A DNA stretch of 64,000 bases from a virus, in the IMG/VR virus record IMGVR_UViG_3300033153_005812, positions 11,915-75,914 of that record; one strand, given 5' to 3'. Shown in pieces: positions 356 through 41,277 of this stretch (position 1 is the first letter of the stretch; every line of letters begins with the position of its first letter). The notes under the pieces were generated by a model. It did no database searches. It worked only from the letters and a program-made list of their open reading frames with translations, and was not told the origin of the DNA. The position numbers and the translations under genes are program-made.

Positions 356-940
356 ATGTTTTCAGTCATCACAAAATATCTACCAAAGCCAATACGTATC
401 AAAAAAGGTGTTGCGAAAAAACTTCAAAGTGTATTCGGAGAATGTCAACTCTTATATAATTTGGTTTACGGTTTCTTGAGTGAATCAACTCCTGCTATAA
501 AATCTAAGGCTCTAAGCAACGAAGAGCTCACAGATTTTGGTTTTCTTTGTAGGGAATTGGAGAAATTATTCGATGAGCTACGAAAAGAATGCAAAGCTCG
601 AAAAGAACTTTGTGGGAGTGTAATTGCTTATCGATTGATTCAAGAATCTTTGACAGATCCTACAATTACTATGAAGTCGAAAGGGGAATTAGCGACTGGG
701 ACGCCAAATCTAAAAATGGAAGTTCAGTTACCGAAGAAGTTTACAGATGAATATTTTCAACTGACAGATTTCTTCGGTGTTCCCAGAGAAGTTGCGGAGA
801 CCGGTATTTTACGTCTTGATTGGAAAATGGTCACAACATATTGTACGAAACTCTTAGAGGATGGGAAATCAATCCCAGAAGGTTTTGGGAAAAAATATCC
901 CCGGTATGTAACAACATACAGAAGAACGAAGGGAGGTTGA
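356..940 (+). CDS. hypothetical protein (replication region)
   Basis: 194-aa ORF with AAGGAG RBS; no family recognised. Confidence 0.6.
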   Translation: MFSVITKYLPKPIRIKKGVAKKLQSVFGECQLLYNLVYGFLSESTPAIKSKALSNEELTDFGFLCRELEKLFDELRKECKARKELCGSVIAYRLIQESLTDPTITMKSKGELATGTPNLKMEVQLPKKFTDEYFQLTDFFGVPREVAETGILRLDWKMVTTYCTKLLEDGKSIPEGFGKKYPRYVTTYRRTKGG

Positions 941-1014
941 AACAAAAAAGAAAACCCTGATAATTGTTGGTGAGAGAATCAATGTAAATTAATCTAAATT
1001 TTGGAGACCTGATT

Positions 1015-1902
1015 ATGAGTGAAAATGGTAACGGTCAGAACGGCCAAAGTAAAAAGGCAAGCAGAACGGAAACTGCGATCAACAAAGTTGAGGGGATAGA
1101 TCCAAACTATCTTCAGAAGTACATCGAAGATGATAAGAGTTTGGACACCCTCAAAGAACAGCGTGTGGTTCCGCGGTTGAAGATTATTCAGGCGACATCG
1201 GAGACTGAGCTGAAGAGTCACTTTGGCGAGGGTACTGTTATTGTTCGTCCTGGCGATGCTATGATCTGCAAATTTAACGACGATCCACGTTCGTTCGACT
1301 TTGTCCCTCTGTTCTTTTTCATAGAGTGGGCGAAGTGGGCAGATCTTCGAGCCGGTTCCGGACCAATGATCTTAGATCGAACTCACGACGCTTCCAGTGA
1401 GATCGCTATCAAATCGAAAAACTTTGAGACGCGTACAGAGGTTTATCCGGGGCACGCACAACTCCCAGAGCCCGATAAGCATTATTATCGCTATGTCGAA
1501 CATCTCAGGTTCATCGGGCTTATCTACGGCGATCATCCTTTGGCAGGGACTCCGGTGACGTTGTCTTTCGAACGTGGTGAATGGGGTCAAGGAAAGAATT
1601 TCATCTCTGCCGTAACATTGCGAAGGCAAACGATAGGTGATACTCCTCGCCCAGTTCCGCTCTGGGCTCAGGTATGGAGACTCTCACCGAAGTTTAGAGA
1701 GCCTGATGCAAGCAGAAAATGGTATGGCTTCGGTTTCGAGCCTGCTGATCCGTCTCTTATAAGAGAAGATGAGGCAGAAGCTATGTCGGCTTTGCACACC
1801 GAATTCAAAGAGCTCTTTAAGCAATCGAGGTTGATGGTTCAGGATGAACCGACCGAGCAGACCGTCGACGAAGCTGAGACAAAAGCCCATAAAGACTTCT
1901 AA
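1015..1902 (+). CDS. putative ssDNA-binding/annealing protein
   Basis: PRLKIIQ N-terminal motif, aromatic beta-rich core, acidic C-terminal tail ending in F, GGAG RBS, upstream of the primase-helicase and followed by a terminator. Confidence 0.5.
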   Translation: MSENGNGQNGQSKKASRTETAINKVEGIDPNYLQKYIEDDKSLDTLKEQRVVPRLKIIQATSETELKSHFGEGTVIVRPGDAMICKFNDDPRSFDFVPLFFFIEWAKWADLRAGSGPMILDRTHDASSEIAIKSKNFETRTEVYPGHAQLPEPDKHYYRYVEHLRFIGLIYGDHPLAGTPVTLSFERGEWGQGKNFISAVTLRRQTIGDTPRPVPLWAQVWRLSPKFREPDASRKWYGFGFEPADPSLIREDEAEAMSALHTEFKELFKQSRLMVQDEPTEQTVDEAETKAHKDF

Positions 1903-1929
1903 ATTTGAACCTTGTTTTTACTAACTAAT

Positions 1930-1965
1930 TAGCAGCGGGATGTGAATATGTTCCGCTGCTATTTT
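1930..1965 (+). terminator. intrinsic terminator
   Basis: TAGCAGCGG...CCGCTGCTA stem followed by TTTT. Confidence 0.6.
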
Positions 1966-1969
1966 GCTC

Positions 1970-2039
1970 AGCCTATAACACCGACTCACTCCCGCAGAGG
2001 CTCTGAGCGATCGCTGGGGAAGCCGATATCAGGCTGTAA
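1970..2039 (+). repeat. dispersed 70-bp intergenic element, copy A
   Basis: AGCCTATAACACCGACTCACTCCCGCAGAGGCTCTGAGCGATCGCTGGGGAAGCCGATATCAGGCTGTAA; 69/70 identical to 54291-54360. Confidence 0.9.
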
Positions 2040-2079
2040 ATCACGTTTTAGACGTTATCAGCCTTTTCAGGAAAATTAA

Positions 2080-4953
2080 GTGTCGTACAACATCAAAGCC
2101 ATAAATGCTTTAGCTGAATTAGAAAGATATGGTTGGACGTATCAACCGTCTGGATCAGATGAAGTTAGATGTCTTTGTCCAGTGCACGACGATGAACATC
2201 CCAGTCTTTTCCTTAACATAGAAAAAAATGTTTGGATCTGTCATGCTTCGCAATGTAGAGCTCATGGCGATATAATCGCACTTCTTGCTCACATCGGTAA
2301 AGTTCAACGAAAAACAATCATCGCAGATTTATTGACAAGATACCCGGATCTACAAGACATTAAAATTGTAGATCAAAAACGAATAGAAAAATTTCATCAG
2401 GCGATTTGGAAATCTGGTTCTTTCTTACAAGAATTATATAAGAGAGGAGTGACGGATGACGATATAAGAGAACAGAGAATTGGTTTCAATGGCGAGCGAA
2501 TAATTATTCCTGTTTATAATTTGCAGAAGCAAGTGATCAATCTTCGTAAATATATGCCAGGAGCTCCCGGTCATGAGAAGATGAGAAATCTTAAAGGATA
2601 CAGCACTTTAGCTTTATATATGCCAGAACAGTTAAAGTATGAAACAATATGGATTTGCGGTGGAGAATTGAAAGCTCTCGTAGCTAAGAGATTATTAAAT
2701 CCTGAGAATATTGGAGCGACATCGGTAACTGGAGCAGAGGGTGCTTGGCATAAAACTTTTATCCCGTTCTTCAAAGACAAATTTGTTTTTATCTGTATGG
2801 ATATTGATGTTGGTGGTGTAACAGCAGCGAAAACTGTTGCTCAACAAATTCTTCGAGTTGCGAAGGCTGTCTTTATAGTACATTTACCGTTAGACGAACG
2901 AAAATATCCGAAAGGTGATATCAATGATTGGGTGGGAAGTGAGAAAGCTACTACTCAAGATTTCTTAGCTTTAATGAAAAATGCTAAGAAATATATGCCT
3001 CAAGAAATCTTAGATGAGGTAGATAATTCTGAACCCAAAAGATGTAGGTTGATAGAAGCAGGGAAAGCAAATAACATAGGGATTAAAATTCAATGCGATG
3101 CAGTTATTTCAACTATAAGTGAAGATACTCTTATAATAACGAAAGAAGTAGATATAGCTTGTACGCGAGATACTAAATTCTGTGCGTTGTGTCTTGTAAA
3201 TTCTAAAGAACCAGATGAAGAAACTGGTTTAACTCGAATCAAAATACAAGCTACAAATCCGGCGATATTAGAAATGCTGAATTCATCGCCCTCGAAATTG
3301 AAATCTGCTGTGCTATCATCTCTGAATGTTCCAGACTGTAAGTCTGCAAAAGTTAAACCATTTTCGTATTATAACATCGTGGATACAAGGCTGACTAATC
3401 CTTTAGAAATACACAGTGAGGAAAGTGAGCATATTGTTCAACCTGCATATATAATCACCGATAAGATTTTAGATCTAAATATTCCTTACACAATTATTGG
3501 TAAGGCATATCCTCATCCCATAAATTGGGCCGGTGTTCTTCTTATTGACGCGGTAGAAGAAAAAGAAGATAGTTTATCATCTTATGTTTTCAACGATGAA
3601 GATTATGAACAATTGAAAATTTTCCGACCTGAAGAATGGTCTTATGAAGGTTTGGAAGAAAAGCTGAATTGCATTTATAAAGATTTCGCTTATAATGTAA
3701 CTCGCATTTTTCAACGTCAAGACTTACATCTTGCAATGGACTTGGCTTATCATTCAGTTTTACATTTTAACTTTGAAGGTCAAGTTCAGAATGGATTGAT
3801 AGATTGTCTTGTGTCTGGAGATAGTTCTCAAGGTAAAAGTGAAGTCGCTATTCGTCTCATACAACATTATAAATTAGGAATGAGACACGATTGTGGAGGT
3901 GCTACGATATCTGGTCTTCTTGGAGGAGTAGAACAGATGGGAAACAAGTGGTTCGTTAAGTGGGGTATAATTCCAATCTATGATATGCAATTGGTTATCT
4001 TAGAAGAAATAAAAGGAGCCAGTGTTGAAGTTTTAGGTAAGCTGCGTGATATGAGAACCTCTAAAATCGCTGAGATAATGAAAATAGCACGGCGAAAAAC
4101 TCATGCAAGAACTCGTATAATAATGATCTCTAATCCACGTAGTGATAGAGCTGTATCTTCTTATAGTTATGGAATAACTATTGTAAAAGAACTAATGGGT
4201 AATCTGGAAGATGTTCGCCGCTTTGATTTCGCTTTAATATTAGCTCAACAGGAAATAGATAGAAAAGTTATAAATGATTTTCAGCGAAATCAAAATATGG
4301 TAGAACCATATTATTCTTCAAAAATTTGTAAGAAAAATGTTTTATATGCGTGGACTCGAAAAGTGGATCAAATAAAGTTTGAAGACAAATTCCGTAATTT
4401 GTGTTTAGACTATGCAAATAAATTGTGCTCCAAATTTTCTGAGTCATTGCCTCTTTGTGACAAAGGGACTATGAGACATAAATTAGCCAGGATAGCTATC
4501 GCTTTAGCTTGTAGAACTTTTAGCACTACCGATGATTACAGAATAGTATTAGTGAGAGAGTGTCATATTAAATACGCCTATAGATTTCTAAATAGAATTT
4601 ATAGTGCTCCTTACTGCGGCTACGATGGTTATTCTAAAGCAGAACGACAACATTCGCAATTACAAAATACGGATAAGATAAAATCAGCATTAAAAGAGAC
4701 AAAACATCCACGAACTTTACTCGAACAGATATTATACGCAGAGAGAATAAGTCTTGTAGATCTTCAATCGTGGTGTGAAATAGATCGAGATAACGCTCAA
4801 AGATTGTTATCTTTATTAGATCGCAATGGAGCTCTACATAGAGATTCAGGTGGATTTGAATATGTAAAATCAGCAGGCTTTATAAGTGCGTTGAAAGAAA
4901 TGCTGATAGACAAAACTTTTACAGATAATGTTGCTGAAAGTTCGGAGTTCTAA
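2080..4953 (+). CDS. primase-helicase: CHC2 zinc finger + TOPRIM + MCM-like AAA+ helicase
   Basis: CPVHDDEHPS...CHASQC zinc-binding domain; TOPRIM DxD (CMDID) and KGDIND; central Cys cluster; Walker A GDSSQGKS, Walker B LVILEE, sensor ISNPR, arginine-finger-like VRRFD (MCM SRFD). Confidence 0.8.
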   Translation: MSYNIKAINALAELERYGWTYQPSGSDEVRCLCPVHDDEHPSLFLNIEKNVWICHASQCRAHGDIIALLAHIGKVQRKTIIADLLTRYPDLQDIKIVDQKRIEKFHQAIWKSGSFLQELYKRGVTDDDIREQRIGFNGERIIIPVYNLQKQVINLRKYMPGAPGHEKMRNLKGYSTLALYMPEQLKYETIWICGGELKALVAKRLLNPENIGATSVTGAEGAWHKTFIPFFKDKFVFICMDIDVGGVTAAKTVAQQILRVAKAVFIVHLPLDERKYPKGDINDWVGSEKATTQDFLALMKNAKKYMPQEILDEVDNSEPKRCRLIEAGKANNIGIKIQCDAVISTISEDTLIITKEVDIACTRDTKFCALCLVNSKEPDEETGLTRIKIQATNPAILEMLNSSPSKLKSAVLSSLNVPDCKSAKVKPFSYYNIVDTRLTNPLEIHSEESEHIVQPAYIITDKILDLNIPYTIIGKAYPHPINWAGVLLIDAVEEKEDSLSSYVFNDEDYEQLKIFRPEEWSYEGLEEKLNCIYKDFAYNVTRIFQRQDLHLAMDLAYHSVLHFNFEGQVQNGLIDCLVSGDSSQGKSEVAIRLIQHYKLGMRHDCGGATISGLLGGVEQMGNKWFVKWGIIPIYDMQLVILEEIKGASVEVLGKLRDMRTSKIAEIMKIARRKTHARTRIIMISNPRSDRAVSSYSYGITIVKELMGNLEDVRRFDFALILAQQEIDRKVINDFQRNQNMVEPYYSSKICKKNVLYAWTRKVDQIKFEDKFRNLCLDYANKLCSKFSESLPLCDKGTMRHKLARIAIALACRTFSTTDDYRIVLVRECHIKYAYRFLNRIYSAPYCGYDGYSKAERQHSQLQNTDKIKSALKETKHPRTLLEQILYAERISLVDLQSWCEIDRDNAQRLLSLLDRNGALHRDSGGFEYVKSAGFISALKEMLIDKTFTDNVAESSEF

Positions 4954-9001: not shown

Positions 9002-9031
9002 TTTGCTTTGTTCTAAAAATAGGTTATACTT
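9002..9031 (+). promoter_or_regulatory. sigma70-like early promoter, copy 1
   Basis: TTGCTT-16 nt-TATACT with an AT-rich upstream tract; nearly identical to 23110-23139. Confidence 0.7.
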
Positions 9032-9521: not shown

Positions 9522-10016
9522 ATGGCGAAATCAAATTCAAATGTCACAAAAGTAGGAGGAGCAGGAGCAGAGAAGTCGATCACCACAAAGGAAATCCCGG
9601 AAAAGGCAAAAGGCCGTGTTGACTTCCCGAAGAAATCTGCGATGTATCGAGACAAGGACGGAAACGTAATAACAGCATTGAACGCAGAAGGTTTACTACT
9701 TGCCGTGCCAGCGACAATCCTCGACGGGGAGAAAGTCGTATATTCCGGCTTTGATCCTCGGAAGCATAATCCGCTTAAGAAAAGCGATTTCGTTTCTATG
9801 GCGACATTTTTGCAATATCAAGGTTACGTCGCTCGTTCTCGTGCCGCTCGCCTTATCAAGGTCGCTGAGACCAAAGAAGCCGCAGCAAGTCGGCTTCTGA
9901 AATTCGGCGATGAGCAGACTCGCAAGAAGGCCGCAAAAATCGCCAAGATGCGTGATCAGCTCAAAGCTCTGGAAATGCAGCTCATGGAAGAGGGTATCGA
10001 TGTCTCGGACATCTAA
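9522..10016 (+). CDS. basic hypothetical protein
   Basis: 164 aa, GGAG RBS, followed by a terminator. Confidence 0.65.
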   Translation: MAKSNSNVTKVGGAGAEKSITTKEIPEKAKGRVDFPKKSAMYRDKDGNVITALNAEGLLLAVPATILDGEKVVYSGFDPRKHNPLKKSDFVSMATFLQYQGYVARSRAARLIKVAETKEAAASRLLKFGDEQTRKKAAKIAKMRDQLKALEMQLMEEGIDVSDI

Positions 10017-17403: not shown

Positions 17404-17939
17404 TGAATTATGGACTCAACTATTTTGAACACACATTACGCAAAATGAGCATGACAGCAGAAGATATTTGTCAACGAAGATGGAAATTTATAACTCCTAC
17501 GAAAGCAATACGAATTTTAGACTATGGTTGTGGAGTAGGTTGGTTCCGTGCTTTCAAACCAGATAAGAACCTCATTGTAGATACTTACGATGTAGGGAAT
17601 TACCCTCAAACGGGTATAAATGAAATGGAATATGATCTTATTTGTTTTTGGGACTCTTTAGAGCATATTCCAAATTTAGATGAAATAAATTGGCTATTAA
17701 CAAGAACCGAATTTGTTGCCATTTCAATCCCTATATTTCTTGGTGATATGCAGCAAGAAGAATTTAGAAAATGGAAGCATTATCGCCCAAATGAACACTT
17801 ACATTATTTCACACTACAGACATTAGCGAATTTCTTTGAAGAACGTGGGTTTGAAATGTTCGAGAAAAATCAAAACGAATGTCCTCCACGAGAAGATGTT
17901 TGGTCAATTTTGTATAGGAGAAAACGTAATGCAAGTTAG
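17403..17939 (+). CDS. class I SAM-dependent methyltransferase
   Basis: ILDYGCGVG, WDSLEHIP and EHLHYF. Confidence 0.8.
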   Translation: MNYGLNYFEHTLRKMSMTAEDICQRRWKFITPTKAIRILDYGCGVGWFRAFKPDKNLIVDTYDVGNYPQTGINEMEYDLICFWDSLEHIPNLDEINWLLTRTEFVAISIPIFLGDMQQEEFRKWKHYRPNEHLHYFTLQTLANFFEERGFEMFEKNQNECPPREDVWSILYRRKRNAS

Positions 17940-20295
17940 AAAACGTGACGGACGAATTGTTGACTTCGACTCATATCGTATTCTCAAAGCTATGAAAGGA
18001 GCTTTTACTGAACTTAACATCGATATTCTTTCAGGTGGAAAAATAGATGCTCTAACTGCAAAAGTGATTGACTTTCTTCCAAGTGTGAAAATCATAGATA
18101 TTGAAGTGATTCAAAACACTGTAGAGAAGATCTTAATGGAAGAAGGATATTACGAAGTTGCAAAAGCATATATTCTTTATCGTCAACAAAGAACCTCGCT
18201 TCGAGAGATAGAACCAGATCCAAATGCTATTTCAGATTACATTCATGCCGCGAAATACGCTCGTTACATCCCAAGTAAAAAGCGAAGAGAGACTTATCAC
18301 GAAACCATTAAAAGAGTCGAAATAATGCACAAGAAAAAGTATCCTCATCTCACAGCAGAAATTGGAGATGCTTTTCAATTTGTTCATGATAAATTTGTCC
18401 TCCCGTCTATGCGGAGTATGCAATTTGGAGGCAAAGCTATCGAGAGACGAAATGCTCGGATGTATAATTGTAGTTTCACTCTCGTAGATCGGCCTCGTGT
18501 TTTTGGCGATATGATGTACTTGCTTCTTTGTGGATGTGGAGTAGGATTCAGTGTTCAAAAGCGACATGTCGCAAGACTTCCATTACTCAAAGTAATAGAT
18601 TTCAACTTAACTTATTTTCATGATGTTAAAGATTCAATCGAAGGATGGGCAGATGCGGTGAACGCTCTAATAGATTCTTTTCTACGAGGGTATCATATAG
18701 AATTTAATTTTGAAGCAATACGTCCACCCGGAAGTATTCTTAATAGTGGTGGAAAAGCTCCTGGGCATGTTTCGTTAAAAGAATCTCTCGAAGCTACAAG
18801 ACAGATTTTGCTTTTAGCTCAAGGGAGAAAATTGAAGCCAATAGAATGTCACGATATTATCTGTCATCTGAGTAAAGCAGTTCTTGCAGGCGGAATTCGA
18901 CGAAGCAGTTTAATTTCATTGTTCTCTGCAGATGATGACGATATGTTGTACTGTAAAGATAGAGCTAATTTTGATTTTCAACTTAAGAATCCACAGCGAG
19001 CTTTAGCGAATAACAGTGTTGTCTTAGACAGAGAGAATTACACCTTTGCAGATTTCGCAAGAATTCTACATTTGAATAAAGTAAATCATGGTGATCCAGG
19101 CTTTGTATTCTTAGAAGATTTCGATACTGGTGTTAATCCTTGCGGGGAGATTGGCATCGACCCTGTCTTAAAAGTAGCTATGAGAGATACCTATGACGAT
19201 GTATGGTCGAAGAAAAATAAAGATTCGGCTCTCGTAAATCAATGCAAGACAGGTTTTGGATTTTGCAACCTTGTAGAAGTCAACGCTGCAAAGTGTCGAA
19301 CTTACGAACAATTTTTAGAGGCTTGTAAAGCTGCGAGTTTCATCGCTACTTTGCAAGCGGGTTATACGGACTTTCCTTATCTCGGAGAAGTAACTGAAAA
19401 AATCGTACAACGGGATGCTCTTATCGGTGTAAGTATAACAGGGATGATGGACAATTCTTGGATCTTTGATGAGGGTTATTTAGAAGGAGGAGCTGAAATA
19501 GTAAAAGCTACGAATGCGAAGACAGCAAAATCGATTGGAATCAATCCTGCGAAACGATGCACTTGTATAAAACCAAGTGGAACAGCGAGCTTAGAACTCG
19601 GATGCGTAGGGAGCGGAATCCATCCCCATCATTCAAAGCGATACTTTCGGAGGATTACTGCAAATCCTTTGGAGCCAGTCGTACAGTATTTCAGAAAAGC
19701 TAATCCCCAGATGGTCGAGACAAAACCAAACGGAGATCTCTGTATAACGTTCCCGGTTAAAACAGATGGTCTAACTGTGAATAATATATCAGCAAGAGAA
19801 TTTCTTGATAAGGTCTTTCGCACTTATAAAGGCTGGATTCTTACTGGTCACAGACAAGGTCAAACGCACAATGTAAGTTGTACTCTTGTTGTTGACGATC
19901 AAGAATGGGAAGAAGCTTTTGATTATATTTGGAATCACAGAGATAAAATCAGTTCGATGACTTTTTTACCAAAACAAAGCGATAAACAAATTCCGTTCTG
20001 CCCCAGAGAATCAGTTACGACAGTCAAAGATATCGCTCACTTCGATTCTTTAGTAAAAGGCTATAAACCTGTAGACTATTCTAAAATGATCGAAGAAGAA
20101 GATGTGACTGTGAAAGACGCCGCCTGTAGTGGTATGGTTTGCGATTTAGGTCTCGATTTTTGTAGTGGAATTGGCCTACGCGTCTTTCAAAATGAATTTG
20201 ATTCTCGTATAAAGACCTTCACATATCGAGGTTTGACATTTGAACTATATGAACAAAGAAACGGATATTTTATTGCTAAGCGAATTATGGAGTGA
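17929..20295 (+). CDS. nrdJ: class II (B12-dependent) ribonucleotide reductase with N-terminal ATP cone
   Basis: VRKRDG ATP cone, PSMR, YNCS, GCGVGFS, GGIRRS, NPCGEI, FCNL, KPSGT; no beta-subunit gene; ATG at 17929 after AGGAG. Confidence 0.85.
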   Translation: MQVRKRDGRIVDFDSYRILKAMKGAFTELNIDILSGGKIDALTAKVIDFLPSVKIIDIEVIQNTVEKILMEEGYYEVAKAYILYRQQRTSLREIEPDPNAISDYIHAAKYARYIPSKKRRETYHETIKRVEIMHKKKYPHLTAEIGDAFQFVHDKFVLPSMRSMQFGGKAIERRNARMYNCSFTLVDRPRVFGDMMYLLLCGCGVGFSVQKRHVARLPLLKVIDFNLTYFHDVKDSIEGWADAVNALIDSFLRGYHIEFNFEAIRPPGSILNSGGKAPGHVSLKESLEATRQILLLAQGRKLKPIECHDIICHLSKAVLAGGIRRSSLISLFSADDDDMLYCKDRANFDFQLKNPQRALANNSVVLDRENYTFADFARILHLNKVNHGDPGFVFLEDFDTGVNPCGEIGIDPVLKVAMRDTYDDVWSKKNKDSALVNQCKTGFGFCNLVEVNAAKCRTYEQFLEACKAASFIATLQAGYTDFPYLGEVTEKIVQRDALIGVSITGMMDNSWIFDEGYLEGGAEIVKATNAKTAKSIGINPAKRCTCIKPSGTASLELGCVGSGIHPHHSKRYFRRITANPLEPVVQYFRKANPQMVETKPNGDLCITFPVKTDGLTVNNISAREFLDKVFRTYKGWILTGHRQGQTHNVSCTLVVDDQEWEEAFDYIWNHRDKISSMTFLPKQSDKQIPFCPRESVTTVKDIAHFDSLVKGYKPVDYSKMIEEEDVTVKDAACSGMVCDLGLDFCSGIGLRVFQNEFDSRIKTFTYRGLTFELYEQRNGYFIAKRIME

Positions 20296-21924: not shown

Positions 21925-22830
21925 ATGAAGATCCTCGTAGATGCTTTTCTTATCATACATCGAGCTAAATACAAGTTAGATTTTCTCGAGAATACAGCCG
22001 GTCGAAAAACAGGAATGGAATACGGTTTTATCAAACTTTGTGAAGCTCTTGAACGAGAATTTGCAGGTGGAGATATAGTTTTGTGCTGGGAAGGTAAGAA
22101 CAATTTTCGCAAGGAGCTTTATCCAGACTATAAGGGAAATCGTAAACCAAGTACGAATCCTCTTGCAAAACTCGACTGGGATCGCGTCGCCGATCTTAAA
22201 AACTTTTTAAGACAACCTTATATCAACGCAGAAGCTGAAGGCTACGAAGCAGACGATACGATAGCCAGTCTTGTAGATCACTACAAAGATCAAGAAGAGG
22301 TTATAATTTGGTCGAATGATAAAGATCTACTTCAACTTGTTAGAAAAGGTGTAACGGTTTGGAGAAGTTTTCAAGAGTTGCATAAGAAGTATAAGTGGAC
22401 ACCGAGGACAATTGAAGAAAAGTATGATGGATTATTTCCAAATGAGCTTCCAATTTATTTTGCTTTTGCTGGCGACAAGGTTGACAATATTCCTGGTGTT
22501 CCAAAGATAAGAAAACCTGTTTTAATAAATGCAATTATCAACGCTCGTCGATTGATAAAGCCTGGATCGTTTATTTTCAAAGGGTGCTTGATTCAAGATA
22601 TTTTGAATTACGAACTTTGGTCTGGGCCTGAATTATTAAGGTTAGAAAATTTTATTGAAGCTGGTCATTATCAAAGAAATATGGAGTTAGTAGTTCTAAG
22701 AAGACCAGACGTCATTATACAAGAACCAATAAAGAATGAAGAAATAATAAGAGAGTGGCTTGAAGAGTTAGAGCTTAGAAGTTTGAAAATGTCTGAAGAA
22801 ACAGGAGTGTTAGATAATGCAGAATTCTAA
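21925..22830 (+). CDS. 5'-3' exonuclease / flap endonuclease (PolI N-terminal-like)
   Basis: YPDYKGNR, EADD, SNDKDLLQL and GDKVDNIPGV. Confidence 0.88.
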   Translation: MKILVDAFLIIHRAKYKLDFLENTAGRKTGMEYGFIKLCEALEREFAGGDIVLCWEGKNNFRKELYPDYKGNRKPSTNPLAKLDWDRVADLKNFLRQPYINAEAEGYEADDTIASLVDHYKDQEEVIIWSNDKDLLQLVRKGVTVWRSFQELHKKYKWTPRTIEEKYDGLFPNELPIYFAFAGDKVDNIPGVPKIRKPVLINAIINARRLIKPGSFIFKGCLIQDILNYELWSGPELLRLENFIEAGHYQRNMELVVLRRPDVIIQEPIKNEEIIREWLEELELRSLKMSEETGVLDNAEF

Positions 22831-23041
22831 GATGTCAAATCCAGAAGAAAATGATCTGTCAAAATTACTGAAGCTCAGAAGAAAAACTAATAAGAATTTT
22901 CTTATGTTATTAAACGAATTACAGACCTCTATAGAATCTCTTCGAATCATGGTGAAGTATATGCAATTTGATTTAGAAGCTACGAGGCGAGAAAACATGG
23001 TTCTCAAAGAACAATTACGACAATATGAGGAAGGTGGTTAA
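22817..23041 (+). CDS. small coiled-coil protein
   Basis: 74-aa ORF with KYMQFDLEATRREN. Confidence 0.55.
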   Translation: MQNSKMSNPEENDLSKLLKLRRKTNKNFLMLLNELQTSIESLRIMVKYMQFDLEATRRENMVLKEQLRQYEEGG

Positions 23042-23109: not shown

Positions 23110-23139
23110 TTTGCTTTATTCTAAAAATACGTTATACTT
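23110..23139 (+). promoter_or_regulatory. sigma70-like early promoter, copy 2
   Basis: TTGCTT-16 nt-TATACT, near-identical to 9002-9031; positioned to drive the hairpin-separated gene array. Confidence 0.7.
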
Positions 23140-23238
23140 TAGGTAGTTAAGTTAATTGACAATTGAATCGGGCTGAAACGGAGAAAACAGGGGTGTCGGT
23201 AGGGCTAACCTTTCAAGGCTGACGGCTGAGGACGTAAT

Positions 23239-23293
23239 GGAAAACTTGTGGAGCCGCGACGTTGCGACGTTGCGGATCCGTGTGTTTTCTTAA
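23239..23293 (+). repeat. array hairpin 0 (leader copy, diverged left arm)
   Basis: GGAAAAC..GGAGCCGCGACGT-TGCG-ACGTTGCGGATCCGTGTGTTTTCTTAA; the right arm is shared with hairpins 1-5. Confidence 0.7.
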
Positions 23294-23311
23294 TACAATA
23301 AAGTAAGGAGA

Positions 23312-23554
23312 ATGAAAATGATTACTGCAACTCAAGTTCAAAAGGCAAGTCGTTCGGCGAGAAGAAATGCGTTCTACTTGGTGAAAGAAAACGATGTCAC
23401 TATTGGCATGATTGAAAAACCATATCACAATAAGGACTATCGTGCTCAAGTTGATGGTAGGACTGTTGAGGTGTGTTCAACAAAGAAGCAAGCGATACGA
23501 ACGATACTACGAAGAAAAGGTATATTCGGGGAGTGGATAATTCTCAATAACTAA
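23312..23554 (+). CDS. small early protein, array unit 1
   Basis: AAGTAAGGAG RBS; stop TAA is the first 3 nt of hairpin 1. Confidence 0.75.
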   Translation: MKMITATQVQKASRSARRNAFYLVKENDVTIGMIEKPYHNKDYRAQVDGRTVEVCSTKKQAIRTILRRKGIFGEWIILNN

Positions 23555-23605
23555 GAACGCAAGTCACCGTCCCGTTTCACAACGGGGCGGACACGTGTGT
23601 TCTTA
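23552..23605 (+). repeat. array hairpin 1
   Basis: TAAGAACGCAAGTCACCGTCCCGTT-TCAC-AACGGGGCGGACACGTGTGTTCTTA. Confidence 0.9.
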
Positions 23606-23638
23606 AAATTAAGTGGTGTAAAGTAAGAGGTGTGAAAA

Positions 23639-23863
23639 ATGGATGCTGTTAAAACCCAAATCTTGAAAAGTTTACAAGAACAAGGGTATAAAGTTTTATA
23701 TGTCAAAGGTATTTATGTTTTCAAAGACGGTAAAAGATTATCAACAGCCAAAGCAATAAAGTTAGCAGGTATTAAAGTGAAACCAAAATCACGAAAGACT
23801 AAAACATCACAACCGTTGTATGGTGATTTCGCTTGGCTGGCTGGTATCAACCGTATCAACTAA
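23639..23863 (+). CDS. small early protein, array unit 2
   Basis: GAGGTG RBS; basic 74 aa; stop within hairpin 2. Confidence 0.75.
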   Translation: MDAVKTQILKSLQEQGYKVLYVKGIYVFKDGKRLSTAKAIKLAGIKVKPKSRKTKTSQPLYGDFAWLAGINRIN

Positions 23864-23922
23864 GAACGCAAGTTACCGCCTCGTTTTGAGAAACCACGAC
23901 GGGGCGGATCCGTGTGTTCTTA
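23861..23922 (+). repeat. array hairpin 2
   Basis: TAAGAACGCAAGTTACCGCCTCGT...ACGGGGCGGATCCGTGTGTTCTTA. Confidence 0.9.
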
Positions 23923-23947
23923 AAGTAAAGGCTGTAAAGTAAGGAGA

Positions 23948-24157
23948 ATGAAAATGACTACGATAGCACAATTAAAAACTGACATCAAAGACTTGAGTGG
24001 TCGCTTGTACTATTGCAGTAACACTGGTGAAGGCCGCAAGATGAGACGTGAGATTGAAAAGGCTATTCATCAAAAAGAACAGCAACTTGAACAAATCTTT
24101 GTTGAAGAAGGATGTTTAGATTATCAACATCAAGCTGGTCGAGTAGTGAGGAGCTAA
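23948..24157 (+). CDS. small early protein, array unit 3
   Basis: AAGTAAGGAG RBS; stop within hairpin 3. Confidence 0.75.
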   Translation: MKMTTIAQLKTDIKDLSGRLYYCSNTGEGRKMRREIEKAIHQKEQQLEQIFVEEGCLDYQHQAGRVVRS

Positions 24158-24208
24158 GAACGCAAGTTACCGCCCCGTCGTGAGACGGGGCGGACACGTG
24201 AGTTCTTA
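24155..24208 (+). repeat. array hairpin 3
   Basis: TAAGAACGCAAGTTACCGCCCCGTC-GTGA-GACGGGGCGGACACGTGAGTTCTTA; GNRA tetraloop. Confidence 0.9.
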
Positions 24209-24241
24209 AACAAAACAAAGTAAGTAAAGTAGAGGTGTAAG

Positions 24242-24433
24242 ATGGAAAAGCTAATTATAATTAAAGCGACAATGAACGATGGTCGAGAAAAAGAATATCG
24301 AGCTACAAATTTCACAGTGAAGCCTCTTCGTGATGGTACAGGGCTATGTATCAAAGTAGCTACTGACCACTCTATCATTTGTAGGAGTATCGCTGTTGAG
24401 CAAAAAGAAGTTGAGCCAGCTATTTGTTTGTAA
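24242..24433 (+). CDS. small early protein, array unit 4
   Basis: GAGGTG RBS; stop within hairpin 4. Confidence 0.7.
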   Translation: MEKLIIIKATMNDGREKEYRATNFTVKPLRDGTGLCIKVATDHSIICRSIAVEQKEVEPAICL

Positions 24434-24551
24434 GAACGCAAGTCACCGCTCAGTATAGAGATAATGACACGTTGTACCGGGAAATCAGTTGTTTGTGCTA
24501 CTAACGACCTGGGAATCAACACTCTTTGCTGAGCGGATCCGTGTGTTCTTA
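24431..24551 (+). repeat. array hairpin 4 (long apical insert, compensatory stem)
   Basis: TAAGAACGCAAGTCACCGCTCAG...CTGAGCGGATCCGTGTGTTCTTA with about 75 nt between the arms. Confidence 0.88.
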
Positions 24552-24584
24552 AAGTAAAGCGGTATAAAGTAATAGGAGTATGAA

Positions 24585-24989
24585 ATGATAAAGTGGACAG
24601 AAGAATCAGTTCTCGCTGTTATAGCGGAAGCAAGAAAACTTGGTGCTGAATTCGCTGCTAAGAAGTTAGCAGAATTGCAAAGAAATGGACCTCAATATGA
24701 AGTGACTTCTGGTAGTACAACAGTTGGTACGCTGCTCGATGTCTGTGGATCTGCTCACTTGAAGATTTCAGCGAGAGGCAAGTTTTATCAGATCGCTAAG
24801 AAATTATCTGCTGATAAAGGGATATATAGATTTCTTTGTGATCGTGCTTATCATGGTGGAGGAATGCTGTGCATTTTTGACAGCACGATGCGACAAGAAA
24901 TGTCAGTGAATGTTGCCGCTTGTAAAGGACAACAAAGTATCTTAGAAACTTATGGAATCGATGCGACAATAAAAAGTCGCATCGACTAA
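24585..24989 (+). CDS. early protein, array unit 5
   Basis: AGGAG RBS; 134 aa; stop within hairpin 5. Confidence 0.75.
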   Translation: MIKWTEESVLAVIAEARKLGAEFAAKKLAELQRNGPQYEVTSGSTTVGTLLDVCGSAHLKISARGKFYQIAKKLSADKGIYRFLCDRAYHGGGMLCIFDSTMRQEMSVNVAACKGQQSILETYGIDATIKSRID

Positions 24990-25047
24990 GAACGCAAGTC
25001 ACCGTCCCGTTTTGAGAGCCACGACGGGGCGGATCCGTGTGTTCTTA
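24987..25047 (+). repeat. array hairpin 5
   Basis: TAAGAACGCAAGTCACCGTCCCGT...ACGGGGCGGATCCGTGTGTTCTTA. Confidence 0.9.
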
Positions 25048-25062
25048 ACAAAGTAACGGAGA

Positions 25063-25284
25063 ATGAGAATGGCGAAACGCAAATTAAAATTCAAACCTCG
25101 TCGGGCTCTGCTTAGATCAGATTTTAGAAAAACTCCAAAGCAAGAACCCCTCGCAGGAATGATTCTAATTGAGGGTGATGGTTGCATCGCCGTAGATAAA
25201 ATCAATAACTCGTTTCCTGATAAAGCAGAACGATTAGCGTACATCCGTGCTCTTATTGTAGGTATGGGCGGCTCACTTGAATAA
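25063..25284 (+). CDS. small early protein after the last hairpin
   Basis: AAGTAACGGAG RBS; Arg/Lys-rich N-terminus. Confidence 0.65.
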   Translation: MRMAKRKLKFKPRRALLRSDFRKTPKQEPLAGMILIEGDGCIAVDKINNSFPDKAERLAYIRALIVGMGGSLE

Positions 25285-26999: not shown

Positions 27000-27421
27000 T
27001 TAAAGTTTACATAGGTGCGAGTTTTCCCAGACAAAAAGAAGCTCAACTACTGGCTCTAAGACTTTCCCCCATAGTAGAAATTGTCTCTACTTGGCATAGA
27101 GATGATTTGAAAGCTGTCCCGAGAGATGGCGAAGAATGTTTTCACAGAGTAATGAGGGATCTCTCCCAAGTTAAAGATTCAGATTTAGTTATCATCTTTA
27201 TCGGAGATGAACTCACTGGTGGAGGGAGACATACAGAGTTAGGTATAGCTATTGGAATGGGAAAGAATATAGCTATCATCGGAGAGTATGATTCTAATCC
27301 GTTCGAGCTTCTTCCTTATCTACATCCTTTCAGTTCAGCAGATAGTTTTGTAAAAGAACTGTTTTGTTTTCAAGATGATCTACAGACGCATCTCGATAAT
27401 TGGAGTCCAAAATTCAACTAA
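26996..27421 (+). CDS. nucleoside 2-deoxyribosyltransferase / NMP N-glycosidase-like protein
   Basis: KVYIGASF, DLSQVKDSDLV and GGRHTELGIA (catalytic Glu pattern). Confidence 0.7.
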   Translation: MIKVYIGASFPRQKEAQLLALRLSPIVEIVSTWHRDDLKAVPRDGEECFHRVMRDLSQVKDSDLVIIFIGDELTGGGRHTELGIAIGMGKNIAIIGEYDSNPFELLPYLHPFSSADSFVKELFCFQDDLQTHLDNWSPKFN

Positions 27422-27610
27422 AGTGGGAGAACAAAATGAAAGAACAATTTTTGTGTGCTTGCGGAACCAACCTGAAGTGTAATGGAATTTGTAGGGAGAC
27501 AAATTTGTTTCGTAAAAGGAGCAATCTAACTCGTATGAATCGTTGTCCTGCCGCTTATAAAGTGAGTAAGTTGCAAAGAAGAATCAAAAAATAAAATATC
27601 GGAGAACAAA

Positions 27611-39825: not shown

Positions 39826-41277
39826 ATGGCTAACGATATTGCGATTCCGTGTGTCGGTTATGATGTGATGTCTCCAGATTGGGATCTTCTCCACGATCTT
39901 TTAGGAGGCACAAGAGCAATGAGATTAACTGGTGAGAAATGGCTCCCCAGAGAACCTCGAGAGGAAGGTTATAATGCACGATTGAATCGGTCTATACTAT
40001 ACAATGCCTATCGAGATACTTTGAGTAAACTTGCAAACAGACCGTTCGCTCATCCTATACAATTTACAGATTTACCAGATGAGTTGACATACTTAATAGA
40101 CGATGTTGATGCTACTGGTAAGTCTTTTGAGTCTTTTGCAAGAGAGGTCTTAAAAGATCTGATAAATTACGGTCTTGCTCATATCTTTGTAGATCATAGC
40201 GAATTACCGGAAGTTGTAGAAGGTGAAACTCTTACGAAAGCAGATGAGGAAAGATTAGGAGCAAGAGTTCTTCTAAATGTTATTCATCCTCCTAATCTTA
40301 TCGGTTGGCAGACAGAGATTGTTGATAAACGGGTGACACTAACACAGATAAGAGTAAAAGAAATTATAACAGAAGCTTTTGGAGATTATGGTGATGCAGA
40401 TATAAATTATATAAGAGTCTATACTCGAACTGGTTGGGAAGTTCATCAAGAGTTTGATTCAGAGAATAAAGAAGGTGAAAAAGTTTGGAAAATAGTTGAA
40501 TCAGGGGAGCACACTTTTGGTAGTATTTCTTTAGTGACAATCTATGCAAATAGAGTCGGGTTTATGATGGCCGAACCTTCGTTAATGGATTTAGCATGGC
40601 TTAATCTTGCTCATTGGCAATCTTATTCAGATCAAAGAAACATTTTGCGTCTTTCACGGTTTGGTCTTCTTTTCGGTAAAGGTTTTCCTAAAGATATGGT
40701 TGGACAATCGCTCGATATTGGACCGAGTAAGGCTTTCTTAACAACAGATACGAATGCGGATTTGAAATATGTTGAACATACTGGAGCGTCAATTGAGGCT
40801 GGAGCAAAGGATATCGAAGACATTGAAATTAAGATGGAGATCCTTGGTCAGCAGCCTTTGATGCGGAGTACTTCGCTTAGCACCGCAACAGCAAAACGAA
40901 TCGATGAGAGTAGAAATGTCAGTCAACTTCAATCTTGGGTGAGAAGTCTTGAAAGAGGATTATTGCAAGCTATTGAAATGGCTTGTGAATGGCGAAAAAT
41001 TGAGATGCCGGAAACTACAAAGATCGATATCTTTAGTGATTTTGAAGTTGCGATTTCTGGATCTACAGATAAAGAGTTACTTTTGAAAGCACGAACGGAG
41101 GGCGAGATCACAAGGGAAAGGTTCTTAAGGGAGGAACAGCGTAGAGGTGTGTTCTCTGGTGATATGGATCCTGAGGAAGAAGCTAAAGCTGCGGAGAAGG
41201 AGAGCGTAGATGATTTGAGTAATTATATTGAACCAGAAAAAGATAAAGAAGAGGAGAATGAAGAAGAGGAAGACTAA
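39826..41277 (+). CDS. portal protein (DUF4055-like)
   Basis: DLLGGTRAMR...WLPR...YNARL, DVDATG, LNLAHWQSYSD, TATA; acidic tail; precedes MuF. Confidence 0.8.
   Translation: MANDIAIPCVGYDVMSPDWDLLHDLLGGTRAMRLTGEKWLPREPREEGYNARLNRSILYNAYRDTLSKLANRPFAHPIQFTDLPDELTYLIDDVDATGKSFESFAREVLKDLINYGLAHIFVDHSELPEVVEGETLTKADEERLGARVLLNVIHPPNLIGWQTEIVDKRVTLTQIRVKEIITEAFGDYGDADINYIRVYTRTGWEVHQEFDSENKEGEKVWKIVESGEHTFGSISLVTIYANRVGFMMAEPSLMDLAWLNLAHWQSYSDQRNILRLSRFGLLFGKGFPKDMVGQSLDIGPSKAFLTTDTNADLKYVEHTGASIEAGAKDIEDIEIKMEILGQQPLMRSTSLSTATAKRIDESRNVSQLQSWVRSLERGLLQAIEMACEWRKIEMPETTKIDIFSDFEVAISGSTDKELLLKARTEGEITRERFLREEQRRGVFSGDMDPEEEAKAAEKESVDDLSNYIEPEKDKEEENEEEED

Follow-up and report, generated by a model that had tools for sequence, protein, structure and literature searches.

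We analysed an array of small genes and RNA hairpins in the genome of an uncultured phage, IMG/VR record IMGVR_UViG_3300033153_005812, of which bases 11915-75914 form the 64-kilobase (kb) stretch called the window here; coordinates are those of the window unless a contig is named. Behind one sigma70-type promoter the array consists of an untranslated leader with a diverged hairpin, followed by five promoterless open reading frames (ORFs A to E), each of which ends in a copy of the same hairpin. The 18-nucleotide (nt) 5′ arm of this hairpin, TAAGAACGCAAGTYACCG, has five exact copies in the window (starting at 23552, 23861, 24155, 24431 and 24987), all on the + strand and all in the array, compared with 0.08 expected; its 3′ arm, CGGAUCCGUGUGUU, has five exact matches at the same five places and is shared by the leader hairpin as a copy with three mismatches at 23273. 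The whole genome holds no copy beyond these five and the leader, in a single array and a single orientation. The five cassette hairpins fold as + strand RNA with energies of -30 to -45 kcal/mol (z -4.9 to -7.4), each with at least 10 base pairs in its upper stem, and the repeated hairpin family described by an earlier, sequence-only reading of this DNA was confirmed in both its arms and its fold.

The features of the array all lie on the + strand, and the scores given for the hairpins are those of our family covariance model, R1. ORF A (23318..23554; 78-80 residues, no family) has its likely start at the second ATG, 7 nt after GGAG, and its stop codon forms the first three nucleotides of hairpin 1 (23552..23605; 69.3 bits), whose internal loop has its 3′ side at 23591-23595. 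ORF B (23639..23863; 74 residues, no family) is followed by hairpin 2 (23861..23922; 70.6 bits), which has an apex of the GUUUUGAGAAACCACGAC class common to many relatives, and ORF C (23954..24157), a member of the CSNTGEGRK family with homologues at other array positions in the related contigs L006, L037 and L053, by hairpin 3 (24155..24208; 68.2 bits), which is closed by a GUGA tetraloop. ORF D (24242..24433; 63 residues), whose homologue in L053 lies upstream of C and not downstream, precedes hairpin 4 (24431..24551; 62.7 bits), the apex of which carries an 85-nt structured insertion. ORF E (24585..24989; 134 residues) has a homologue in L048 with 56% identity that is also flanked by hairpins, and it ends in hairpin 5 (24987..25047; 74.7 bits), the last of the array. 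All five ORFs end in a TAA that opens the hairpin, and no pair of them is similar in BLASTP at E<=1e-3, as had been stated from the sequence. Inside the 3′ end of ORF E a further 10-base-pair (bp) hairpin, AUCGAUGCGAC...GUCGCAUCGA (24958-24986), abuts hairpin 5, and the structured region thus reaches upstream of the ORF E stop codon. The first gene past the last hairpin is ORF F (25069..25284; 71-73 residues), after which small ORFs follow, tightly packed and without hairpins.

The promoter before the array, TTGCTT-N16-TATACT at 23111..23138 (+ strand), has an A/T-rich upstream tract. Its position and sequence are kept in six relatives (those named are L006, L027, L037, L043 and L058), a conservation from which its function is deduced and which agrees with the promoter proposed earlier. 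A near-identical copy lies at 9003-9030, with the common sequence TTGCTTTRTTCTAAAAATASGTTATACT, and the two point to a small promoter family that would drive separate + strand transcription units. Transcription from 23111 would produce a conserved untranslated leader of about 100 nt (23140..23239, + strand, defined by an alignment of six loci), with counterparts in L006 (9809-9894), L027 (12337-12442), L037, L043 and L058. The leader contains a Shine-Dalgarno (SD)-like purine tract, GGGCUGAAAMGGAGAA (23170-23193), with no conserved ORF behind it, and may bind ribosomes and so stabilise the 5′ end in the manner of STAB-SD or of the SP82 polypurine sequence.

The leader hairpin (23240..23290, + strand) is the diverged member of the family. 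It had been read as a diverged copy preceding the first ORF, and this much holds. Its 7-bp lower stem, GGAAAAC/GUUUUCU, is nevertheless unlike that of the cassette hairpins, its loops are small and the internal loop smaller than theirs, and it scores only 15.3 bits with R1. Its upper stem has 10 bp, the whole folds with -26.4 kcal/mol (z -5.3), and at least three pairs show compensatory changes across six loci. The setting of promoter, leader and array differs between relatives: in L006, L037 and L043 the array follows a large tail-fibre-like gene (1037-1147 residues), and in the window, L027 and L058 it follows an exonuclease gene and a 74-residue gene (compared over L006 5920-9363, L037 in its oriented form 443-3556, and window 21925-23041). 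The difference means that either the array has moved together with its promoter and leader, or these contigs differ in their permutation.

Consideration of the junctions between cassettes gives insight into how the units are built. An automatic tally of 27 instances places the stop codon (TAA or TGA in the arm) in the first three nucleotides of the hairpin in 21 and 4-8 nt before it in the others; for the L057 copy at 933 the ORF list also puts the stop at the hairpin start (offset 0), which makes a 22nd such instance. Each hairpin is followed by an A-rich spacer of 21-39 nt ending in a strong SD sequence and an AUG, and little pairing is predicted for spacer, SD and AUG (0.66-0.93 unpaired). 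For ORFs that apparently start with MKM, a second ATG lies 7 nt after the GGAG of a repeated GGAGAAUGAAAAUG motif, and several of them probably start there. Four of the five window spacers contain no promoter-like pair of hexamers, and the one promoter-scan match near a junction (25063-25090; 9/12) falls immediately past hairpin 5, where ORF F begins.

Stable, GC-rich intergenic stems of this kind might attenuate or terminate transcription and thereby grade the expression of the operon's genes, much like the stem-loops of the PeSL (promoter-early stem-loop) elements of T4-type phages, which have been shown to terminate transcription (PMC2839356). An intrinsic terminator, however, combines a GC-rich stem with a U-tract, and none of the copies is followed by a U-tract; the A-rich spacer without a U-run stands after every one, and a terminator scan flagged short internal sub-stems and nothing else. 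Since no promoter follows the hairpins, termination would also silence all downstream cassettes. We therefore regard termination as very unlikely, and the same holds for the ordinary terminators named earlier as the alternative to RNA processing, as far as the sequence can tell.

To describe the family we used an alignment (A1) of 24 distinct full hairpins from 11 contigs, together with R1. All 24 copies follow one plan: a lower stem of 10 bp is separated by a 5x5 internal loop from an upper stem of 8-10 bp or more, and the apex is free. Of the cells in A1, 94.4% are paired, compared with 32-46% in controls with slid partner columns; changes on both sides occur in seven of the 18 pairs, including compensatory changes in six of the eight upper-stem pairs, and none of 500 shuffles reaches any of five measures. 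The compensatory changes that had been noticed in the upper stem are thus a property of the family. The upper helix varies freely in sequence while 98.4% of its cells are paired, in register. Hardly any sequence variation is seen, even between diverged phages, in the lower helix, in the loop or in the CCG/CGG base of the upper helix. The lower stem of about 10 bp that had been proposed is present in all copies, although its position 8 is unpaired in 17 of the 24 (G-G, G-A, A-G or A-C). Arms differ by about 3.3 of 36 nt between copies (about 91% identity), whereas the coding DNA next to them in these contigs reaches no more than 67-76% in alignments, a difference that points to sequence-specific recognition.

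The structure is selected on the sense-strand RNA. This conclusion follows from the covariation together with three asymmetries: 25 G-U cells on the + strand against four A-C cells (which are G-U on the other strand), a more stable + strand in 18 of the 24 copies, and the occurrence of all copies in the direction of the genes and only within the array. The G-U pairs that had been taken to favour an RNA structure were therefore read correctly. The GNRA loop cited with them is found in one window copy only (24155, GUGA), and the other apexes do not share it. Apexes range from 4 to about 85 nt; long structured insertions lie in the window (about 85 nt, 24449-24533), in L050 (about 45 nt, 9736-9780, - strand) and in L053 (about 45 nt, 356-399), the latter two with a GGACUCCAUU-like core in common. 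Rfam covariance models, self-cleaving ribozymes included, gave only noise between 22500 and 26000 (E >=3).

Pattern scans found the element in the viral contigs L006 and L027 (the same as L021) and in eight metagenome contigs, L037, L043, L048, L050, L053, L057, L058 and L074; L057 has nine copies within 2.4 kb. A number of matches were discarded: three of five leader-pattern matches in viral contigs (L026, L028 and L029) are chance matches, and most of 45 metagenome matches to the 5′-arm pattern, and all 32 in bacterial genome representatives, are chance or coding, the latter having been rejected by R1. A blastn search of the region against a collection of isolated phages returned no match. 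Distant relatives with an exonuclease 32-39% identical (L022-L025) have no R1 match, and no repeated hairpin family was seen downstream of the exonuclease gene in L023-L025. A search of relatives with a covariance model had been proposed as a check on the idea of a modular array, and in these contigs the same hairpin flanks different ORFs in different orders.

We compared gene content with ORF families defined by BLASTP. In six relatives (L006 9978-10109, L027 12532-12657, L057 77-214, L058 4186-4323, L037 and L043) the cassette next to the leader always encodes a membrane peptide of 43-45 residues (M), whose N-terminus is hydrophobic and whose basic tail reads KRQNKV...QYKE; M is absent from the window phage. 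Family C occupies the third place in the window and the second in L006 and L037, and it stands behind a different gene in L053, where the order is D, zinc-ribbon ORF, hairpin, C, G; the window order is C, D, E, F, ..., G, ..., zinc-ribbon. The zinc-ribbon ORF (CxxC...C) ends in a hairpin in L053 (176-340) and has none in the window (27400-27594), and the hairpin is therefore not tied to a particular gene.

The clearest exchange is seen between L037 and L043, which are 93% identical over 1.5 kb (tail gene, leader, M, hairpin and spacer) and then unrelated over exactly one ORF, C (72 residues) in L037 and Y (94 residues) in L043. The swapped segment runs from the ribosome-binding site (RBS) and ATG to the next hairpin, at the first base of which 94.5% identity resumes. 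The R cassettes of L057 and L058 are alignable (87%) over a stretch that begins with the upstream hairpin and stops after the 18-nt 5′ arm of the downstream one. Past this arm the apexes are unrelated, and L057 has five extra cassettes between M and R. Synteny with the window resumes on both sides of the array in L027, L058 and L050; L050 and L058 overlap by 126 identical bases and come from different samples, so that their joining is presumptive.

These comparisons support the view that relatives vary in which genes the hairpins bound, in how many of them there are and in how they are ordered, and that homology breaks at the hairpins, as the sequence-only reading had supposed in speaking of gain, loss and shuffling of genes. 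In terms of sequence comparison the array is a hyperplastic spot, its units bounded by the block of hairpin, spacer and RBS. General homologous recombination at this repeated block of about 60-100 nt would be the economical explanation for the exchange, to judge by the breakpoints. In T4-type phages exchange at PeSLs proceeds without a dedicated recombinase, by homologous recombination that has been shown experimentally (PMC2839356). There, too, repeated regulatory motifs flank ORFans in a hyperplastic region (PMC2839356, PMC4122927), and the boundaries of indels and replacements lie within the motifs, with no dedicated recombinase, as is seen here for L037/L043, L057/L058 and window/L053. The two differ in that each PeSL has its own sigma70 promoter and a terminating stem-loop, whereas the units of the present array are promoterless and lack a U-tract, with a processing-type hairpin and an RBS behind a single promoter.

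Promoterless single-gene units behind one promoter, with cassette content that varies among relatives, also recall integrons, and the sequence-only reading ranked this interpretation second. The hairpins would then be attC-type DNA sites that fold in single-stranded DNA and are cut by a site-specific recombinase, the cassettes moving as circles. The likeness extends to the plan of the site, in which an unpaired central spacer separates the outer from the inner stem and the terminus varies (apex 4 to about 85 nt), and to the ends AAC...GTT. The interpretation nevertheless fails on four features that define attC and IntI. There is no integrase: tyrosine and serine recombinases (PF00589, PF00239) are absent from the complete 75.9-kb genome, with positive controls, and neither an attI nor an integrase was seen beside any of the 11 arrays. 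It is the opposite strand that folds, since attC acts through the bottom strand and the top strand is favoured here (25 G-U against four). The upper stem, 98.4% paired in register, has no consistent extrahelical bases. Finally the core motifs are others, the ends being TAAGAAC/GTTCTTA and not RYYYAAC/GTTRRRY. A role as attC-type sites is thus extremely unlikely.

A related possibility dispenses with the integrase. A virulent phage would then possess an integron-like platform for gene capture that needs no recombinase, with the hairpin as its junction, directing both mRNA processing and the precise excision and insertion of single genes. Template switching at the hairpin, or cassette circles, could be the route, and a captured ORF would be expressible at once because stop and RBS are already in place. 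We consider a platform of this kind quite improbable. Other repeats compare poorly. REP (repetitive extragenic palindromic) and BIME (bacterial interspersed mosaic) elements are dispersed and in both orientations, whereas five copies and the leader are found here in one array and one orientation, and miniature inverted-repeat transposable elements were dropped on the same grounds of a single array and orientation. CRISPR-like and ToxI-like repeats were dropped for their wrong sizes, and a stimulator of stop-codon readthrough or frameshifting because the sequence suggests no product.

The sequence-only reading had likened the hairpins to the early RNase III sites of T7, and we retrieved the T7 early region and folded its five intercistronic gaps for comparison. 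The positions of the T7 sites, which are unannotated in the record used, we take to be those of Dunn and Studier (1983). In the folds of the R0.3, R0.5, R1, R1.1 and R1.3 gaps a 4/5 internal loop separates a lower stem of 6-8 bp from an upper stem of 9-10 bp; the T7 copies share the conserved sequence ACUCAAGGU...GGCCUUUAUGAUU, and the lower stem of R0.5 contains the UGA of gene 0.4. The likeness therefore stood up to direct folding. Both systems have repeated intercistronic hairpins in one polycistronic transcript from host-type promoters, a two-part plan of about two helical turns with sequence conserved among the copies of one phage, and a stop codon in the lower stem (in T7, that of gene 0.4 in R0.5). 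There is, however, no sequence relationship, and R1 finds nothing in T7. The internal loop is symmetric here (5x5) and 4/5 in T7, the conserved part is the lower stem here and the upper stem in T7, and here the stop codon opens the hairpin at most junctions and the apex may hold long insertions.

An RNase III substrate needs about two helical turns, and internal loops restrict the enzyme to a single cut, which leaves a 3′ hairpin that protects against 3′ exonucleases (PMC1540722). Internal loops are also present in the targets of Bacillus subtilis RNase III in SP82 early mRNA, where the enzyme makes one cut, on the downstream side (PMC1935012; primary references in PMC4838370). SP82, compared here by published description and not by sequence, resembles the present phage in having conserved mRNA hairpins with internal loops, and the strong SD-like sequences near the proposed new 5′ ends recall the 5′ stabilisers known from Gram-positive systems. 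The features of RNase III signals found in our array are about two turns of double-stranded RNA with an internal loop in all 24 copies, selection on the transcribed strand, and an intercistronic position behind one conserved promoter.

We propose that the hairpins are RNase III-type processing and stabilising signals whose arms double as crossover homology, as in the T4-type PeSLs, a reading that we hold, on balance, to be probable. The hairpins would act in cis within the polycistronic sense-strand mRNA that the promoter at 23111 produces; each forms, immediately at a gene's end, some two helical turns with the conserved internal loop between them. This loop would be the site of a single cut by an endoribonuclease specific for double-stranded RNA, most probably the host RNase III; the host enzyme is implied because no RNase III gene was found in the complete phage genome. 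The upstream gene would keep a protective 3′ stem-loop, and the next gene would be released as its own message. Because they are nearly identical at every junction, the 18-nt arms, the spacer and the RBS may act as portable homology, at which general recombination would replace, delete, insert and reorder single-gene units, and the TAA or TGA in the arm would supply a captured unit with a ready stop codon. We infer the cleavage, the enzyme, the stabilisation and the recombination at the arms as the cause of exchange from these features and precedents.

Several observations weigh against this proposal. Bacterial RNase III generally needs little sequence conservation, and the invariant lower stem, position 8 and loop could mark a sequence-specific protein or a different nuclease. 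With the stop inside the lower stem, terminating ribosomes melt half of the substrate. Frequent crossover predicts homogenisation of the arms within a genome, and the likeness of arms from one genome does not significantly exceed that of arms from different genomes (p=0.35). RecT, ERF and RecA family recombinases were searched for in the phage and none was found. As these recombinase families were not found and the arms are not significantly homogenised, the recombination step stays inferred from the breakpoints.

Some of the same observations would suit an RNA structure that is not an RNase III site, either a passive, REP-like barrier to 3′ exonucleases or a sequence-specific site of protein binding or cleavage that times or shuts off expression, for example for a translational repressor or for a RegB-like or other endoribonuclease of phage or host. 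The GC-rich upper stem alone would block 3′ exonucleases, and an almost invariant lower stem, loop and upper-stem base with a usually unpaired position 8 suits a specific site better than generic recognition of double-stranded RNA. On the other hand, the classic RNase III plan is just such a helix of two turns with a loop at its centre (PMC1540722), and the T7 sites are likewise conserved in sequence among themselves. There is also no candidate for such a protein, the neighbouring ORFs all being without families. We consider these non-RNase III functions possible but doubtful.

By analogy with the T7 and SP82 models, the element is best classed as an undescribed sequence family of a known sort, that of intercistronic processing and stabilising hairpins; by analogy with the PeSL model, modular shuffling at repeated regulatory motifs is a known evolutionary side effect. 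What is specific here is a lower stem of fixed sequence that includes a stop codon and one usually unpaired position, and a very clean replacement of a single ORF between near-identical phages.

The proteins encoded by the cassettes offer few clues to their function. The array ORFs have no Pfam match above the curated cut-off and no PHROG match; ORF C has a weak, sub-threshold Pfam match to PF22709, a Mu Gam/Gp157-like domain. The look-alikes of ORF E in the Atlas are clusters of phage hypothetical proteins only, and its AlphaFold model has a mean pLDDT (predicted local distance difference test) of 38.7. A role of the cassette ORFs in host takeover or anti-defence is unsupported speculation, because there are no such Pfam or PHROG matches and ORF E has only hypothetical look-alikes; an early timing of the operon, beyond its host-type promoter, is unsupported speculation as well.

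The genome itself is 75,914 bp long, has direct terminal repeats and is rated 100% complete. In our own check of the whole genome the terminal repeat is 114 bp and exact, the G+C content is 39% and nearly all genes are on the + strand. Upstream of the array lies a nucleotide-metabolism and replication block with a class II ribonucleotide reductase, a 543-residue methyltransferase-like ORF, a 5′-3′ exonuclease and a 74-residue coiled-coil ORF; downstream there is a run of small ORFs. The reductase (819 residues, 17836-20295) is nearest to that of Microcystis phage Mel-JY01 (39% identity), and the portal protein (483 residues, 39826-41277) is nearest to those of Nitrincola and Pseudomonas YuA-like siphoviruses (35-38%). 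No transfer RNA genes were found in the 64-kb window, and an SD sequence is present for about half of its genes.

Taken together, the results change no principle, since the T7, SP82 and PeSL elements already cover both halves of the idea. The compact unit of stop, hairpin, unstructured spacer and strong RBS is a candidate insulator for synthetic operons. If the hairpins are cleaved as proposed, an undescribed family without an Rfam match, from uncultured phages, would join the few phage mRNA-processing signals that have been studied, mainly those of T7 and SP82. The array is also among the cleaner comparative cases in which expression signals mark the points where accessory genes are swapped, with one ORF replaced between flanks that are about 93% identical.

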